From positions 64,001-128,000 of the forward strand of contig JAEHCQ010000004.1 of NCBI GenBank assembly GCA_020696385.1: a stretch of DNA of 64,000 nt. Direction: 5' to 3'. Made by a program: the position numbers and the translations under genes. The stretch comes from Methanobacteriota archaeon. GTDB taxonomy: Archaea > Thermoplasmatota > Thermoplasmata > SG8-5 > JAGLSY01. Below, in pieces: positions 27,950-35,436 of the stretch; position 1 is the first letter of the stretch; every line of letters starts with the position of its first letter. The notes under the pieces are model-generated. The model saw only the letters and a program-made list of their open reading frames with translations. It made no database searches and was not told the origin of the DNA.

Positions 27950-28061
27950 TGGGCCCAACGAGATTTGAACTCGAGACATCCCGGTATCAGAGAGAACAAC
28001 CCCTTATTTGAGGTTTGTTCCATATCAGCCGGGCGCTATAACCAGGCTAAGCCATGGGCCC
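27950..28061 (-). tRNA. tRNA-Ile(GAT) with 37-nt intron at 37/38 (intron 27986-28022)
   Basis: GGGCCCA/TGGGCCC acceptor stem, CCCGG-CTGATA...A-CCGGG anticodon arm, GTTCAAATC T-loop; relaxed BHB. Confidence 0.9.
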
Positions 28062-28464: not shown

Positions 28465-31400
28465 GTGACGAGTTTGTATCTCAAACAACTTGAAGTGGAG
28501 AATTTCAAATCATTCAAGGGCAAATTGTCCATACCATTTATGGATGGATTTACGGCTATTACAGGGCCGAATGGCAGTGGGAAATCCAATGTATCTGATG
28601 CTGTGCTTTTTGTGTTGGGGCCAAGGAGCTCCAAGGCCATAAGGGCGGGTAAGCTCACTGATCTTATATTCAATGGTGGTAAGACTGGTAAGCCAGCATC
28701 ATTTTGCAAGGTATCTTTGATCTTTGATAATTCGGAGAATATTCTACCGATCTCGACCAATGAAGTAAAATTGACCAGGCTTGTCAAGCGCTCGAAGAAC
28801 CAGATCGGGTATAGCAGTAATTTTTATGTCAATGGGAAGAAGTCCACATTGGGAGACTTCGACAATATTCTTTCTCATGCAAGGATCTCATCAGATGGCT
28901 ATAATATCGTACAGCAGGGTGATATAACCAATATCGTCAGCATGGGCGGTGTAGAGCGCAGGCAGATATTGGATGAGATAGCCGGAATAACAAGATTTGA
29001 CAAGGATATCGACTCTGCCAATGTCGAGAAGATAGAGACCGATGACAACCTTGAACGTATTGATATCATAATGGATGAGATACGCAAGCAACTGAAGCAA
29101 TTGGAAGGCGAAAGGACCAGTGCGATGAAGTACAAGGAGATCAAGGAAAAACTGGACCTTGCCAGAGCCCAGATCGAATACAAGAAGAAAAGCAGTGTGG
29201 AGAATGAGCTTCAGGGAATGGAAGAGCAGATCAATAAGAGGGAAGAGGAGATATCAAAAACACATGCTGAGAAAGCCGCTCTTTCCAAGAAGCTCAATGA
29301 TATATCCATCGAGTTGGATGAGCTTGAAAAAGAGTTCTCCGAGAAGAGCTCGCAGGAAAACCTGGAATTGAAGAATAAAATTGATTCTTTACGCGTCGAG
29401 GTTGCAAGAAGTAATGATTCTATAGAATTGTCCAAAGAACAGATACCTGAGCTTAAGGGTGAGAAAAAGAAAAAAGCTCTGGATATGAAAAAGATAGAGA
29501 CAGAGCTTGTGGACTTGAATACTGAACTCAAATCTACAGAGATCAAGATCAAGGACAATGATCACGAGATGAAGGAATTGGACAAGTCTTTGAAAAAGCA
29601 CAAGTCCAAGCTTTCCAAATCCGATACCGACCTCTCCAAACTTCAGGATGATGTTGTTGAGATGAAGAACAATATGGATGTAGGCGCGACCCAAGTTCAG
29701 AAGCTTATCATAGATAAGGACAGGGCACTTGATAAGAGCAAAAGGATCAAGCTGGATATATCTGAGCTTGAAGAATCAAAGAAGACCCTGGAATTCGAGA
29801 TCAAGGATACTGACTGGCGCCTTAAGGAATACAGTTCCACCACGAAGAATTCGGATAAAGAAATGAAGGCACTGCAGGAGAATTTCTTCCAGAAGAAGAG
29901 CAGGGAGGAAGAACTCTCCAAGCAAGCGGTGGAGCTTGAGAGCGCGATCAAATCCCTGACAAGACAATATAATCAATTAAAAGCAGAAAGCGAGGCTTCA
30001 CAATCTGTGGCCAAAGGTTACACAGCAGCTGTTAACAAATTGGTCGAGGCAAGGGATCGTGGAGATATCAAAGGTATTCATGGAACGATCGCCGAGCTGA
30101 TAAATGTGGATGATCAGTTCGAAACTGCGATCAACACGGCCGCTGGCCCAAGAATGCAGGCCCTGGTTGTCAATGATGATGCAGTGGCTGAAAAATGTAT
30201 ATCCTATCTCAAGAAGAACAAGATAGGCAGGGCGACCTTCCTTCCACTCAATAAGATGGTGATGCAGAAGCCAAGGGGCAAGGCTCAATTGGCTGTCAAG
30301 AGATCACTTGGCTTTGCCTTGGATCTGGTTCAATTTGACGAGAAATATCGAGATGTATTCTCCTATGTATTTGGCGACACCCTGGTCATGGGCTCTCTCT
30401 CGGAAGCAAGAGAGATAATGGGCGGTGTCAGGATCGTGACCAAGGATGGAGAGCTTATTGAAGCATCAGGTGCCATGATAGGTGGATTGAGATCCCGATC
30501 TATGCTCAAGATCGGAAGTACGGATAAGAAATCTCTGGATGATGTTTCAAAGAGGCTGAGAAAGGCCACGAATGAAGCAGATAATATCAGCGGGGAATTA
30601 AGCTCATTGAGATTGGAGCTCATTGGAATTGAAAAGGAGATAAAAGAGACAGGAGCCTCATCCGGTGGATCATTGGGTAAAGGCGAAGCCCTCAAAATAA
30701 AAAAGAAAGAGCTCCAGACGAATCTCAAGACCCTTGATAACAATATCACAGGATTGAAGAAGGAACTCGGAATTGTGGAAAAGAGCATCACGAAGCTCGA
30801 ATCCGAACTGATGTCCCAGGCGGACAAGATGGAGACTTTGAAAGCACAGAAAGATGAGATGGAAAAGAATCTCTTCAAATTGACCCCTGCAAAGATGGGC
30901 AAAGAGATGAATGAACTTCAATCAAAATTATCCGAACATATCAATATCAAGTCCGAGTTGGAAGCAGGTGGATCATCTCTGAAGGCACAGATCAAGCTGT
31001 ATACGGAAAGGAAGAAAGAAATACAAGCTGTATTGGATGAACTGGAAAATAAGATCAATGTAAATCAGGATAATATCAAATCAAAATCCAAAGAGACAGA
31101 CAAGCTTAAGGTGAGCTTGAAAGCAGAATTGAAATTACAGGAATCGATGGGCAAGGATCTTATCATTGCCAGGGATAGGCGAGATAAAGTTTATCGAACC
31201 AAGATGGAGACCGAGGCCGAGATAGAGAAGCTCAATCACAGAGCGGAGACCAAGGAAGACTTCATCAGAGGTTTAAGGATCGAATACGAGAATGCTTCCA
31301 AGAGATTGAAGGAGATAGAGGAAGCGGTTAAAGATATCAAGATCGAAGATAAGGACAAGATACCTTCAATGGAAACACTGAAGAAGATCATCAGAAGATC

Positions 31401-32127
31401 CGAAGTATCACTGGAGACCATCGGCAGTGTGAATATGCTGGCTTTGGAAACCTATGAAGAGCAGAAGGACAGACATGAAGAACTGAAGGTCGAGGTCAAG
31501 AGATTGAAGGATCAGCGAAAGAGATTGATCAAGCTGGTTGACGAGCTCAAGGAGAAAAAGAAGACCGGGCTCCTCAAAGTATTCGATGGTATCAATGAGA
31601 AGTTCAAGGATGTGTATGCGGATCTCTCGGATGGGGGAGAAGCTGAGCTTCTTATAGAGAATATGACGGATCCTTTCCAGGGTGGCCTGCAGATAAAGGC
31701 CAGACCCAAGGGGAAGAAAGTGCACAGGTTGGAAGCACTTTCTGGTGGTGAGAAGGGCCTTGTTTCCATGTCCTTCATATTCGCGATCCAGAGATATCAG
31801 CCATCACCTTTCTATGTTCTTGACGAGGTAGATCAGAACCTCGATGCTCTAAATGCACGCAATATCGCGCAGATGATAAAGAGGAATTCCGAGCGTGCTC
31901 AATTCCTTCAGATATCACTTAGAGAGGTTACATTGAAGGAGGCTTCCAATCTCGTGGGGGTCACCATGCAGAATGATGGTATTTCCAAGGTCATAATGAA
32001 AGTCGATCTGGGAACTGTTAAGAAGGATATCATGGACATCAAAGATGCCGATATCAAGGATATCAAAGGAACTGATATCGATAATATCGAAGAAGATACA
32101 CCAAGTATGAACAATGGGATGGGATAG
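28465..32127 (+). CDS. smc: Chromosome segregation protein SMC
   Basis: ENFKSF, GPNGSGKSN, hinge GIHGTIAELI/GRATFLPL, LSGGE, LDEVD. Confidence 0.97.
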   Translation: MTSLYLKQLEVENFKSFKGKLSIPFMDGFTAITGPNGSGKSNVSDAVLFVLGPRSSKAIRAGKLTDLIFNGGKTGKPASFCKVSLIFDNSENILPISTNEVKLTRLVKRSKNQIGYSSNFYVNGKKSTLGDFDNILSHARISSDGYNIVQQGDITNIVSMGGVERRQILDEIAGITRFDKDIDSANVEKIETDDNLERIDIIMDEIRKQLKQLEGERTSAMKYKEIKEKLDLARAQIEYKKKSSVENELQGMEEQINKREEEISKTHAEKAALSKKLNDISIELDELEKEFSEKSSQENLELKNKIDSLRVEVARSNDSIELSKEQIPELKGEKKKKALDMKKIETELVDLNTELKSTEIKIKDNDHEMKELDKSLKKHKSKLSKSDTDLSKLQDDVVEMKNNMDVGATQVQKLIIDKDRALDKSKRIKLDISELEESKKTLEFEIKDTDWRLKEYSSTTKNSDKEMKALQENFFQKKSREEELSKQAVELESAIKSLTRQYNQLKAESEASQSVAKGYTAAVNKLVEARDRGDIKGIHGTIAELINVDDQFETAINTAAGPRMQALVVNDDAVAEKCISYLKKNKIGRATFLPLNKMVMQKPRGKAQLAVKRSLGFALDLVQFDEKYRDVFSYVFGDTLVMGSLSEAREIMGGVRIVTKDGELIEASGAMIGGLRSRSMLKIGSTDKKSLDDVSKRLRKATNEADNISGELSSLRLELIGIEKEIKETGASSGGSLGKGEALKIKKKELQTNLKTLDNNITGLKKELGIVEKSITKLESELMSQADKMETLKAQKDEMEKNLFKLTPAKMGKEMNELQSKLSEHINIKSELEAGGSSLKAQIKLYTERKKEIQAVLDELENKINVNQDNIKSKSKETDKLKVSLKAELKLQESMGKDLIIARDRRDKVYRTKMETEAEIEKLNHRAETKEDFIRGLRIEYENASKRLKEIEEAVKDIKIEDKDKIPSMETLKKIIRRSEVSLETIGSVNMLALETYEEQKDRHEELKVEVKRLKDQRKRLIKLVDELKEKKKTGLLKVFDGINEKFKDVYADLSDGGEAELLIENMTDPFQGGLQIKARPKGKKVHRLEALSGGEKGLVSMSFIFAIQRYQPSPFYVLDEVDQNLDALNARNIAQMIKRNSERAQFLQISLREVTLKEASNLVGVTMQNDGISKVIMKVDLGTVKKDIMDIKDADIKDIKGTDIDNIEEDTPSMNNGMG

Positions 32128-32128
32128 A

Positions 32129-33094
32129 ATGAAATACGACACAGAGGAAATATTGAACCACTTGCTTTTTCACAAGGCAATAATCAAGGAGAACGATGAG
32201 GATCTGAACATGGACAATTACCTGTCTTTGCTCCATAAATTGGATGAAGGCATGCATGTTATTATCGAGGATCCTGTTGAAAAGGCGGTTGCCATTGCAT
32301 TCCAATTGGTCATGGAGAGCAAGTTCGATCCATGGGACATGGACCTTACTGAATTCACCAAATTATATTTGAAAAGGATAAATAATGATGACGATGTTAA
32401 TTTCATAATAGCTGGAAGGCTCATTCTCATGGCCTGGTCAGTTCTCAAGATGCAGAGTGATAAAGTTCTGTTGGATGCGGACAGACCCGAAGAAGTGGAG
32501 GAATACTTCTTCGAGGACTGGGATATCATGGAGCATTCCGAGGAGCCATCAAGCTCTGGTTATTTCCAGACTGTGTTGCAAAGTGAGGCCCCCATCATCC
32601 AGGAGGCCGTCAGGAATACAGCCACTCGTCAGGTGTCACTCATGTCCCTTCTCGAAGCTTTTGACGAGGCTCGCCAGGAGATCGAATTGAGAAAATTGGT
32701 GGGTAAGCGCTTTGATGAACCTGAGATCGAATTCAATCTTTCAGACAATATGCATATGGAGAATCTGGAAGAGAATATCAGTATCACATGGCAGAGAATA
32801 TGTAATTGCGACGAAGGAGCAATTCCAATTACACAGGTTTGGAATGACGAGCCCATGGATAGAGTACGCGTGTTCGTGTCCAGTCTCTTCCTGGCCAAGA
32901 TGAAGAAGATATCCCTTTCACAGAAAAGATTTCCATATAGTGAGATCATGGTCAAAAATATCGAGACCATGGAGAACACCGAGATGCCATCCATCGAGGC
33001 CGAGATGGATGTCGAGCTGCCTGTTACCTTCGCTACCGACTCCCAGACGGCTGAGGGTGAAAGCATCAGCCTAGAAGAATTAGCGGTGGTGTGA
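32129..33094 (+). CDS. scpA: Kleisin ScpA
   Basis: FDPWDMDL, C-terminal FVSSLFLA...SQKRFPYSEI; follows smc. Confidence 0.88.
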   Translation: MKYDTEEILNHLLFHKAIIKENDEDLNMDNYLSLLHKLDEGMHVIIEDPVEKAVAIAFQLVMESKFDPWDMDLTEFTKLYLKRINNDDDVNFIIAGRLILMAWSVLKMQSDKVLLDADRPEEVEEYFFEDWDIMEHSEEPSSSGYFQTVLQSEAPIIQEAVRNTATRQVSLMSLLEAFDEARQEIELRKLVGKRFDEPEIEFNLSDNMHMENLEENISITWQRICNCDEGAIPITQVWNDEPMDRVRVFVSSLFLAKMKKISLSQKRFPYSEIMVKNIETMENTEMPSIEAEMDVELPVTFATDSQTAEGESISLEELAVV

Positions 33095-33095
33095 T

Positions 33096-33599
33096 TTGAC
33101 AGAAGTCGAGATAGTGGAGGCAATATTGTTCTCTTCCGGTAAGCCGATGACGATCCCTGATATTGCTAGAGCCGGCGACCTGGATGCTGATAAGATACGT
33201 TCTGCTCTCAAAAAGCTCTCCAGATCATACAAGAATCGCAATACCAGTCTTGAAATTGCCAAGATAGGTTCGAAATATGTTCTACAGCTTAGAGAGGAAT
33301 ATAAGAAATCTACCGAAACTGTCGCACAAAGAGAGCTCCCTCATGAAGTGATAAAAACAGCCGCCCTCATAGCCTATTACCAGCCAATGAAGAAGAAGGA
33401 TCTGGTGGAAATGATAGGCAGGCCAGCCAATCCTCATGTGGACGAGCTCAAGAAGCACAGGCTGATAACCGCCGAGCGCGGTGCCCAGGGAAACATCATG
33501 CTGAATACCACGCCCAAGTTCTTCGAATTCTTTGGATTGGAGATGACGAAGCCAGAAGAGCTGAAACAGATGCTGATGAAAAAAGCAGGATTAAAATAA
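33096..33599 (+). CDS. scpB: ScpB
   Basis: VEAILFSSGKP, TAALIAYYQP, TTPKFFEFFGL. Confidence 0.92.
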   Translation: MTEVEIVEAILFSSGKPMTIPDIARAGDLDADKIRSALKKLSRSYKNRNTSLEIAKIGSKYVLQLREEYKKSTETVAQRELPHEVIKTAALIAYYQPMKKKDLVEMIGRPANPHVDELKKHRLITAERGAQGNIMLNTTPKFFEFFGLEMTKPEELKQMLMKKAGLK

Positions 33600-33708
33600 T
33601 CAGCTACTTTTATCATACTGATGAAGAAAGCGGGTCTCAAATAAGACCCACTTTAACTTCATGCTGATGAAGAAGGCTGGGCTTAAATAATTGCCCAGCC
33701 ATATTCAT
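33570..33708 (+). repeat. Three tandem scpB-3'-end hairpin units (45/46-nt period)
   Basis: Copies at 33570, 33615 and 33661 all encode (M/I)LMKKAGLK-stop; each is followed by its own inverted repeat. Confidence 0.92.
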
Positions 33709-33770
33709 TTATTATTAAAGTAATGTCCACAACTATAAATCCTTAAAGACCTTTCTCAGTACCGAAGCAC

Positions 33771-34832
33771 ATGTCTGGTTTTGAAAAGAGTAAGAGAATG
33801 GAATTGCCCCGAGAGGTCGTAGTAGGTCACGATGCCTTAAATGAGGCTCCCGAGGTCTGCAAACATCTTGGTCTTCAAAACTCCGGTATCCTGGTATGTG
33901 ATGAGACTACCAGATCCATTGCGGGAGATAAGGTCAAAGAACTCCTGGAGGATGCTGGTTTTGATATTGATGTGGTCACGATCAAAGCCGCAGATGGTGA
34001 CACTGTGAACACTGTAAGTTCTTTGGCAACAGAAGGAAAGGCTGGCTTCGCTCTTGGAGTTGGTGGCGGCCAGCCAATAGATATTGCCAAATCCGCCTCT
34101 TTCAATATCAAAATACCATTTCTAAGTATTCCGACAGCGGCTTCTCATGATGGTATCGTATCATCCCGAGCCTCGATAACAATGGGCGGCGTTAAGAAGT
34201 CACTTGACGCACATACTCCATTGGGGGTCATCGCTGATACCGGGATCATATCACAATCCCCGCATAGGCTCTTAGCGGCCGGTTGTGGGGACATTATATC
34301 CAATCTCACCGCAGTTAAAGATTGGAAATTGGCTCAGAGGCTGAGAAATGAGGAATACAGTAGCTATGCGGCCACGCTTTCCGAGATGGTTGCCAAGATC
34401 CTAATTGAGAATGCGTCACATATACGACCTGGCCTGGAGGAATCATCCTGGACCGTGGTCAAAGGTCTTGTGTCCTCAGGGGTTTCGATGAGCATTGCTG
34501 GCTCCTCAAGGCCAGCAAGCGGCTCCGAGCACAAATTCTCCCATGCCCTTGACATGATATGTGAAAAACCCGCCCTGCATGGTGAGCAATGCGGGCTGGG
34601 AACGATAATGATGATGTATCTTCACGGCGGTGATTGGGAGAAGATCAAGGAAGCTCTTTGGATAATCGGAGCTCCCACAACCGCCAAGGCCGCTGGCTTA
34701 TCAAATGATGATGTGATAAACGCACTGGTCAAAGCCCATGAGATAAAGCCCGATAGGTACACGATACTGGGCTACAAGGGAATGACCATAGACGCCGCAG
34801 AGAAATTGGCCAAGACCACGATGGTGATATGA
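33771..34832 (+). CDS. egsA: Glycerol-1-phosphate dehydrogenase
   Basis: GVGGG, PTAASHDG, GSSRPASGSEH, LHGEQCG. Confidence 0.96.
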   Translation: MSGFEKSKRMELPREVVVGHDALNEAPEVCKHLGLQNSGILVCDETTRSIAGDKVKELLEDAGFDIDVVTIKAADGDTVNTVSSLATEGKAGFALGVGGGQPIDIAKSASFNIKIPFLSIPTAASHDGIVSSRASITMGGVKKSLDAHTPLGVIADTGIISQSPHRLLAAGCGDIISNLTAVKDWKLAQRLRNEEYSSYAATLSEMVAKILIENASHIRPGLEESSWTVVKGLVSSGVSMSIAGSSRPASGSEHKFSHALDMICEKPALHGEQCGLGTIMMMYLHGGDWEKIKEALWIIGAPTTAKAAGLSNDDVINALVKAHEIKPDRYTILGYKGMTIDAAEKLAKTTMVI

Positions 34833-35257
34833 TGAGTATGTTGACAGTAGTTGGCGTAAGCCTGGCAAAGAAAGGCACGGAGATCATTTTTCTAGGCCCC
34901 CTATCTGAATGTAAGGTGTGTAAGGTCAAGAATATATGTTTTCATCTTGACAAGGGCAGTCATTACAAGATCGTCGGGGTAAGAGATGTCAAGCATGGAT
35001 GTGAAGTTCATGAAGATGGAGTCAAGGTCGTCGAGATCGAGAAGATACCTTTCAAGGCGGTCATGGACAAGAAGAAGGCCATTGATGGCTCTACCATGGC
35101 CTTTGAGTTACCAAGCTGCATAGAGAGAGGATGCGAGCATTATCTGCTGTGCTATCCACCGGGACTGGCTTCCAAGAATAAGGTTAAGATCCTATCACTG
35201 GATGGCAAGGTGGAGTGCCCTGCAGGCATGGCAAGAGTTAAGGTCACTCTTGAGTGA
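34829..35257 (+). CDS. UPF0179 family protein
   Basis: CKVCKVKNIC...C-E-VH Cys pattern; typical egsA neighbour. Confidence 0.8.
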   Translation: MMSMLTVVGVSLAKKGTEIIFLGPLSECKVCKVKNICFHLDKGSHYKIVGVRDVKHGCEVHEDGVKVVEIEKIPFKAVMDKKKAIDGSTMAFELPSCIERGCEHYLLCYPPGLASKNKVKILSLDGKVECPAGMARVKVTLE

Positions 35258-35436
35258 CCTATATGATTTCGAGTAGGTGAGGGCGATTTTTCTTTTGGAT
35301 TGGAAACCTTGTTCTTTTGGAGCCCGAGCCAGCACAGAAATCAATAAAAGAAAAGGCTTCCGTTAAGACCCTATCACTGGATGGCAAGGTGGAGTGCCCT
35401 GCAGGTATGGCAAGAGTGAAGGTCACTCTTGAGTAA
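35183..35436 (+). repeat. 75-nt direct repeat of the UPF0179 3' end (35183-35257 and 35362-35436)
   Basis: 4 mismatches in 75 nt; 104-nt spacer. Confidence 0.9.

Follow-up and report, generated by a model that had tools for sequence, protein, structure and literature searches.

Three tandem, hairpin-forming copies of the scpB gene end in an uncultured archaeon of the Thermoplasmata, and related displaced gene ends in its genus

Why is a gene followed by two further copies of its own last codons, each with a hairpin of its own and neither lying inside the gene? This question is raised by scpB in the genome of an uncultured archaeon of the Thermoplasmata (2.28 Mb in 50 contigs, a metagenome-type assembly with scaffold gaps), within a stretch of 64 kb on contig C44 that was analysed as a whole and is called the window here. 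We refer to this genome as G000 and to three sister genomes of the same genus as G001-G003; coordinates given without a contig are those of the window. Behind scpB, three head-to-tail units of 45, 46 and 46 nucleotides (nt) occupy positions 33570-33708. We see about an even chance that they are stacked former scpB ends with stop-spanning hairpins, which would have been piled up by duplication of a hairpin unit and diversified by exchange with related lineages. The gene and its units are the following:

33096-33599, + strand: scpB, 167 amino acids (aa); Pfam SMC_ScpB match 9e-32, 110 bits, residues 6-151 of 167
33570-33614, + strand: unit 1, 45 nt; active end MLMKKAGLK-stop with its own 3' arm 33600-33614, the pairing reaching 33616
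33615-33660, + strand: unit 2, 46 nt; displaced (I)LMKKAGLK-stop with its own matching arm
33661-33708, + strand: unit 3, 46 nt plus 2; displaced MLMKKAGLK-stop, then a T-rich run

The array starts with the last 30 nt of scpB (33570-33599) and extends for another 109 nt beyond the stop codon. Each unit consists of nine codons, (M/I)LMKKAGLK, a stop codon and 15-16 nt that pair back onto the coding part, so that the stop codon lies in or beside the hairpin loop. Since the scpB open reading frame (ORF) ends at 33599, only unit 1 is inside the gene; unit 2 has the reading frame of unit 1 but beyond its stop, and unit 3, which is out of frame with unit 2, has an 8-bp G+C-rich inner stem and an outer ATGAA/TTCAT stem. 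The first-pass annotation of this DNA had reported three tandem copies encoding LMKKAGLK-stop, and this was confirmed: the 30-nt coding strings of the three units were located at 33570-33599, 33615-33644 and 33661-33690, Tandem Repeats Finder returned 33570-33691 (period 46, 2.7 copies, score 121), and a repeat search found three copies spaced by 45 and 46 nt, together with their inverted arms. Genome-wide, each unit matches only itself, even when 6 mismatches are allowed.

The 166-nt stretch that was folded forms three separate hairpins, with -54.6 kcal/mol as top-strand RNA (z = -7.2, none of 200 shuffles being as good) and z = -7.6 as bottom-strand DNA. Six coding columns vary among the units, five at codon position 3 and one at the first base of a leucine codon, and the minimum of nine substitutions needed to explain them are all synonymous (9/9). 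The synonymous share of the possible single changes is 18/81 (22%), which gives a chance of about 1.3e-6 that all of them would be so. Five of the six variable coding positions (9, 12, 15, 18 and 19) are paired in at least two units in the per-unit minimum-energy folds, and the pairing partner fits each unit's own base, e.g., A-T, T-A and G-C at position 18. The unpaired positions (the loop AAATAA and the 5' CTG) are unchanged in units 2 and 3. Per-unit folds were preferred to a consensus fold of the aligned units, which was poor (-1.13 kcal/mol) because MAFFT misaligned the 3' arms, whose loop lengths differ. The earlier statements that the copies differ only synonymously after the first codon, and that each is followed by an inverted repeat matching its own variant, thus stand, and the arms named at the time were found. 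The accompanying idea that the mismatches favour a folded bottom strand does not: unit 1 is equally stable on both strands (-11.6 against -11.1 kcal/mol), unit 2 is stabler as the bottom strand (-22.0 vs -17.6 kcal/mol as RNA, one C.A mismatch being responsible), and unit 3 is stabler as the top strand (-21.2 vs -19.9 kcal/mol).

Roughly 27 sites per unit would be free to change in a copy that no longer codes, against roughly 9 synonymous sites, and the synonymous, compensated differences would therefore not stem from decay of non-coding copies. The features of a plain slippage repeat are shared in part only: the copies are indeed head-to-tail and their number varies among relatives, but non-coding copies made by slippage should drift regardless of codons, whereas the differences seen are synonymous and paired.

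The relatives of this archaeon carry comparable ends behind scpB. ScpB of G002 is 94% identical and ends with a unit-1-type tail, which is followed by two stops and then by the conserved inner hairpin of unit 3, the 5' arm of which reads AGLN-stop in frame, past the two stop codons. G001 has one clear scpB end, and so has G003, where it is followed by different downstream sequence. The number of scpB units differs across the four species, as the first-pass annotation had expected of relatives, and two independent assemblies (G000 and G002) combine a unit-1-type active end with a displaced end of the unit-3 type. In codon choice, unit 1 is nearest to the active scpB end of G002 (5 differences in 27); unit 3 has 1 difference in 15 from the displaced scpB remnant of G002 and 3 in 24 from the active scpB end of G001, to which it is the nearest of the three units. 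The C-terminal tail xAG(L/I)(K) is conserved across the order, which places the active end under protein-level selection. Scanning metagenomes with ScpB returned one locus, which ends before the C-terminus. The synonymous and compensated differences, together with the matches to G002 and G001, support the earlier suggestion that the non-coding units 2 and 3 would be former functional scpB ends.

A similar stack could be produced by an assembler that concatenates three strain variants of a single scpB end, and this has to be considered in a metagenome-type assembly of 50 contigs in which scaffold gaps made false duplications elsewhere (three rows of the scan described below). At their junctions, however, the units share at most 11-12 identical bases, which is too short, in our judgement, for cycling at the word lengths that assemblers use. 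Besides, the independently assembled G002 has a unit-1-type end followed by a unit-3-type remnant, and comparable stacks occur at orthologous loci in up to three independent assemblies. Since independent genomes of the genus are stacked at the same loci with different unit numbers, we consider an assembly artefact highly improbable, and the comparisons with relatives rule it out as a general explanation of such stacks.

The scpB array belongs to a wider class of displaced gene ends. In a scan of the whole genome, 5053 naive ORFs, each 80 aa or longer, were checked for a second occurrence of their last 7 residues plus stop at most 250 nt downstream. Twenty-six passed, and after removal of three scaffold-gap rows and one duplicate view of the opposite strand, 22 loci were left: 12 cargo-less tandem arrays, nine loci with a small element and one that is unclear. 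Scaffold-gap duplications must be excluded from such counts; at C33:249671-249760 and C46:8365-10098, identical duplications flank runs of N and are scaffolding artefacts. The cargo-less arrays have 2-5 units with periods of 34-90 nt. These periods are divisible by three no oftener than expected by chance (4 of about 13), and read-through translation of the displaced units was rejected on this ground. Codon differences in the set ascertained by peptide were synonymous in 36 cases and non-synonymous in 7. As the peptide criterion itself favours synonymous differences, repeats were also ascertained by nucleotide alignment: among 1920 ORFs of at least 150 aa, the 24-mer at the gene end recurs downstream (at least 19/24) in 22, while as controls an upstream recurrence of these 24-mers was found in 4 and a recurrence of the gene start in 1. 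One member of the class, C46:40538 (C46:40506-40723), has four identical 62-nt units that repeat the last nine codons of a 172-aa ORF. It is a fresh, undiverged gene-end array, and fresh local amplification thus exists in this genome.

Two cargo-less arrays with orthologues in the sister genomes show how such units change between lineages. The array at C22:56763 has four units in G000, two in G002, two in G001 and one in G003. The displaced and active copies of G001 differ at five third positions only, and the active unit of G001 equals displaced unit 2 of G000 at 35/36 bases, the 280 nt upstream being 82.3% identical. G000 and G002 share their layout at C11:54172: the active unit is followed by its inverted arm, a linker of 9 nt and then a displaced unit. 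Between the two genomes, the displaced unit has changed at six sites, each change being synonymous or from stop to stop. Only 4 differences separate the units of one genome, against 6-8 between positional orthologues, which is the pattern of concerted evolution. Judged from these alignments, patchy exchange between lineages has taken place in displaced copies.

The nine loci with a small element point to another possible origin, namely that the scpB units arrived with such an element, which inserted behind the gene, brought or created a replacement end and was later lost. This has the stronger precedent in this genome. The element is modular and 105-190 nt long. Its left and right ends are conserved, and between them it has T-tracts that run in the sense of the neighbouring gene; terminal inverted repeats are absent, and its fold is not marked (z = 0.24 as single-stranded DNA). 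There are about 25 copies in G000 and many in G001-G003. In a search covering one genome each of 185,579 species, the exact pattern of its right half matched in four assemblies of this genus only, and viral contigs searched with the right end gave no match. One copy lies in the window:

34829-35257, + strand: UPF0179 gene (Pfam UPF0179), 1.6 kb downstream
35183-35257, + strand: active 3' end of the UPF0179 gene, first copy of a 73-nt direct repeat
35258-35361, + strand: copy of the small element, about 104 nt with two T-tracts in the gene's sense, directly after the UPF0179 stop
35362-35436, + strand: displaced UPF0179 end, beginning at the first base past the right end of the element and having its own stop

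The displaced UPF0179 copy differs from the active one at 3 of 73 aligned bases (codon positions 2, 3 and 3), with stop TGA against TAA. The element and the displaced copy are missing at this site in G002 and G003, and G001 has another small module there.

The arrangement at the UPF0179 gene is the usual one. Of 31 right-end matches in G000, 18 have a flanking repeat (score of at least 40) that starts at most 6 nt from the right end, and four more have weaker repeats at offset 0; the other nine include chance matches and reverse views. All seven element loci in other assemblies of the genus are arranged in the same way. The flanking repeats measure from 22 to over 300 nt and are always in the orientation of the element. 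Their upstream copy is the active gene end, and it ends 0-25 nt past a stop codon or at the 3' end of a tRNA. Between this copy and the left end of the element lies an unrelated filler of 1-45 nt, so that the left junction is ragged, while the right one is clean, the displaced copy abutting the element. At young insertions the repeats are identical (32, 22 and 24 nt in G000; 29 and 111 nt in other assemblies), which means that the duplication is born from native sequence, and for one of these loci the empty site was seen in G002. Over ten loci with real same-strand ORFs, the two repeat copies differ at codon positions 1, 2 and 3 in 10, 5 and 57 cases, respectively; the unfiltered sum is 28/20/66, eight rows having been left out (tRNA targets, repeats inside the element, identical repeats and a spurious choice of ORF).

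Further features of the element loci resemble what its insertion and later loss at scpB would require. Arrays in which gene end and element are repeated together exist at C2:1751 and C33:72874, and loss of cargo is seen as well. A conspecific contig of 599 nt, which was binned with another assembly and is about 99% identical to G000 at an element locus, keeps the full element where G000 has only its last 35 nt, and most of the element cargo has thus been lost between conspecific strains at this locus; 7 differing bases in the displaced copy of the two are clustered within 20 nt. Behind scpB itself, G003 has a 1.1-kb insertion between scpB and egsA (L004/L034, about 690-1580) with one 223-aa ORF, and the two borders of this insertion are formed by inverted copies of an end akin to that of the small element. 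The scpB array of G000, however, holds no remnant of the element, and at the three cargo-less arrays for which relatives were compared, the element is absent between the units of every relative. In addition, the tail of each scpB unit is the exact pairing partner of its coding part and ends at the hairpin base, whereas element loci have the unrelated filler at this place. The proposal of a mobile-element origin in the first-pass annotation thus stands insofar as a small element flanked by a gene end and its displaced copy exists, but no trace of it, nor the cargo that was expected between the arms, was found between units. Taken together with the enzyme searches, these points make element scars an unlikely origin of the scpB array, though one to be kept in view.

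No enzyme was found that would move the element. A retro-element, which would copy by target priming and jump to the 3' end of a local mRNA, would explain the clean right junction, the ragged left one, the orientation and the position at transcript ends; searches for the reverse transcriptase domain RVT_1 gave no match in G000 (94% complete) or G001-G003, and this model is kept as a remote option only. Phage_integrase (PF00589) is present at four places in G000, on contigs C47 and C1, with none on C44. The comparison across genomes covered the C1 integrase, the one non-Xer-like integrase examined, which in a single-query search had no match in the three sister genomes; it was rejected as the driver, and the co-occurring recombinase that had been foreseen was not recovered. 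The HUH transposase of the Y1 type was rejected as well, being a single-copy gene across the order (in 22/41 genomes) and having the element near it in G000 only, not in G001 or G002. Two descriptions of the element itself were also set aside. It is not a miniature inverted-repeat transposable element, since it has neither terminal inverted repeats nor a marked fold nor a short target duplication of fixed length. An attachment-like core shared by its junctions and targets was rejected, as no similarity was seen between the right end of the element and the gene sequence that precedes the first repeat copy (8.65 vs 7.5 matches in 30 nt).

Three side observations concern these enzymes. The sole Y1 HUH gene of G000, which is IS200-like, lies at C50:1-2500 (L052) and is followed by a tRNA and then by a small element, beyond which there is a diverged second copy of more than 300 nt with the last 20 codons of the gene, a structured downstream region and a second version of the tRNA. 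Its single copy is as would be expected of a domesticated gene of the type of the transposases associated with repetitive extragenic palindromes (REPs). G+C-rich palindromes with a GCATGCCCCG-type arm occur twice per locus behind scpB in another family of the order; palindromes of this type were seen at L006, L007, L011, L012 and L014, and also in G000 and G003 (L004/L034, 1620-1770). They look REP-like and might pair with the order-wide Y1 HUH gene. Contig C1 of G000 is 30.7 kb long and has 32 ORFs, 28 of them without a Pfam match; it encodes a large PKD-domain protein and, at one end, a tyrosine integrase (L079, L080), and is probably a provirus or a plasmid.

Displaced gene ends are known from integrative elements, and prophage e14 in icd of Escherichia coli is the nearest precedent, followed by stacks that arise from repeated integration. 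According to PMC13626634, the replaced 3' end of icd is active and the displaced icdC fragment carries synonymous and a few conservative changes, and recombination between icd and icdC gives a working chimera (citing Hill et al. 1989). The scpB locus is alike in having an active end and downstream fragments that differ mostly synonymously (9/9). On the other hand, e14 is a 15-kb prophage with an integrase between the copies and leaves one displaced copy, whereas at scpB there is nothing between the units and there are two displaced copies, each with a hairpin arm. Work on the tycheposons of Prochlorococcus describes new arrivals that push older ones downstream, so that partial target 3' ends pile up (bioRxiv 10.1101/2020.12.28.424599), and PMC6563490, which treats tandem elements and casposons, states that integrative elements of archaea are frequently inserted in tRNA and protein genes at their 3'-distal part. 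In such arrays the repeats flank elements that encode, now or once, a recombinase with one fixed target. At scpB, repeats of the 3' part of the target are also present, but hairpin arms of 15-16 nt stand in place of element DNA. The targets in G000 are about 20 different genes, a search for a cognate recombinase that covered the C1 integrase was negative, and scpB has no cargo. The scpB array thus shares its outcome with known displaced gene ends and fails their defining features (cargo, recombinase and a single target).

Integrons offer another comparison, and the first-pass annotation had proposed a hairpin-attachment system resembling them. As in arrays of attC sites, the scpB units are in tandem and end in an imperfect hairpin, which the end of an ORF can overlap. 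But there is no integrase or attI nearby (PF00589 being confined to C47 and C1), the units carry no genes, and neither a shared junction motif nor a preference for the bottom strand was found; the core motifs that we take to be typical of attC were not seen in the scpB units, and the element itself forms no hairpin. The joint TCAT-RCTG-ATGA, which had been described as linking the units, is indeed present twice, and TCAT, RCTG and ATGA at the unit ends follow from the scpB codons. Gene-end duplications at TCAT-N4-ATGA, which were predicted from it, occur in 0/11 other cargo-less arrays. The hairpin-attachment system is accordingly not upheld.

A likeness to REPs and to bacterial interspersed mosaic elements lies in imperfect palindromes just behind stop codons, sometimes in tandem, and in the single-copy Y1 HUH gene of G000; REPs, however, are one sequence present many times, whereas each scpB unit occurs once at up to 6 mismatches. 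Slippage and template switching at hairpins or quasipalindromes produce a duplication with an inverted middle copy, and the copies are identical. The borders of the scpB units at the hairpin base and the 2-nt microhomology at their junctions agree with such switching, and the order direct, inverted, direct is clearest at C11:54172. The scpB units differ from its products in having diverged by 15-22%, in a synonymous and compensated manner, so that a further process is needed.

The reading to which we give about an even chance, that of stacked former scpB ends, combines such switching with exchange between lineages. Units 2 and 3 would be old scpB ends that were pushed downstream, with only unit 1 being translated. 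As a unit is one hairpin plus 4 nt, the folded hairpin would bring its first and last base side by side, and a polymerase or a recombination intermediate could pass from the end of the hairpin back to its start and re-copy one unit in tandem. This would leave the gene intact with its old end behind it, the junctions sharing just the dinucleotide AT. The differences among units would be allelic variants of scpB ends that were once in service in sister lineages or earlier, under selection for both protein and hairpin, and homeologous, out-of-register recombination between arrays, which all four species have, may have brought these variants together. The displaced hairpins would further be kept by selection on structure. 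Most likely, the hairpins and the T-rich run behind them would serve to terminate or stabilise the transcript of smc, scpA and scpB before the egsA promoter is reached. The genes and the block concerned are:

28465-32127: smc, from the ORF list and Pfam
32114-33094: scpA, from the ORF list and Pfam
33724-33742, + strand: conserved block with a TATA-like core, identical in G000, G001 and G002, just upstream of egsA
33771-34832, + strand: egsA-like gene of the glycerol-1-phosphate dehydrogenase family (Pfam Fe-ADH_2, 4.8e-37), the downstream neighbour

The block at 33724-33742 is the probable egsA promoter, as suggested by its position and by the TATA consensus of archaea. Being common to G000-G002, it fixes the native downstream border of the array.

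Several observations weigh against the stacking of former ends as set out here, or narrow it. The commonest demonstrable route to displaced ends in G000 involves the small element, which favours element scars instead. The hairpin made of coding end and spacer is present in only about half of the cargo-less arrays, and other arrays of this kind hold non-synonymous differences in their displaced units, e.g., K/R, A/S and I/N at C22:198021, so that scpB is at the clean end of a spectrum. Among 1325 stop-centred windows, 41 reach -15 kcal/mol or below, compared with 93 of the coding controls; a general enrichment of stop-centred hairpins was rejected on this basis, and a general terminator role of such hairpins is not borne out by the comparison. 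At scpB itself, unit 2 is known from one assembly only, 27 nt per unit allow only a weak assignment to lineages, and the import of alleles has been shown at other loci, not at this one. Finally, the template switch at the hairpin base is a proposal drawn from geometry and from the 2-nt microhomology.

The synonymous differences could also have been kept in place, without any exchange, if the displaced units had a use of their own, as additional hairpins that terminate or stabilise the transcript and as reserve ends brought back into use when recombination between units contracts the array. Rare contraction in a very large population would keep the units able to code, a population-genetic argument that is inference only. 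Such selection would agree with the unit-3 hairpin, which both G000 and G002 have kept, in G002 even with a non-coding 5' arm, and with the displaced units at C11:54172, which differ only synonymously and show the pattern of concerted evolution. The unchanged unpaired bases of units 2 and 3 also fit the idea of reserve ends, while selection on structure leaves these loop bases unexplained. The array periods, being multiples of three only at chance level, do not allow read-through as the source of constraint, and recombination between units that are 75-85% alike should be rare. We regard selection in place as quite unlikely to account for the array.

A broader and tentative proposal, to which we give less weight than to the stacking of former ends, is that an undescribed movement of DNA takes place at the 3' ends of transcription units in this genus, the scpB array being the cargo-free product of three events. 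The element, or just the terminal hairpin of a gene, would be copied in behind a stop codon or the 3' end of a tRNA, and the stretch from an upstream point to the gene end would be re-copied, with a clean right junction and a ragged left one. Each event would leave an intact gene and a fossil of the old end, and the repeat-flanked modules could then spread between species by homologous recombination alone. The mechanism behind this genome-wide phenomenon may be new. A search of the literature, limited in its terms and no proof that none exists, found no described element with these properties.

Prophages and islands are known to leave displaced gene ends as a by-product, at one fixed site. In this small archaeal genome, about twenty ordinary genes and tRNAs have them, whether or not cargo is present, and sister species show them at the same loci. 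If this holds true, it shows a renewal of stop-spanning hairpins and gene tails in archaea, and provides a record, kept within the genome, of past or foreign alleles, from which recombination between lineages could be measured. The insertion chemistry of the element, with no terminal inverted repeats, long and variable duplications and a strict orientation relative to the gene, fits no enzyme looked for. In practical terms, such stacks can be mistaken for assembly errors and may mislead the calling of gene ends.

An Rfam scan of the whole window returned three tRNAs only, with no match at the array or at the element. One of these tRNAs, of 112 nt at 27950-28061 on the - strand, just upstream of smc, was reported by Rfam and not by ARAGORN, and may be an intron-bearing gene.

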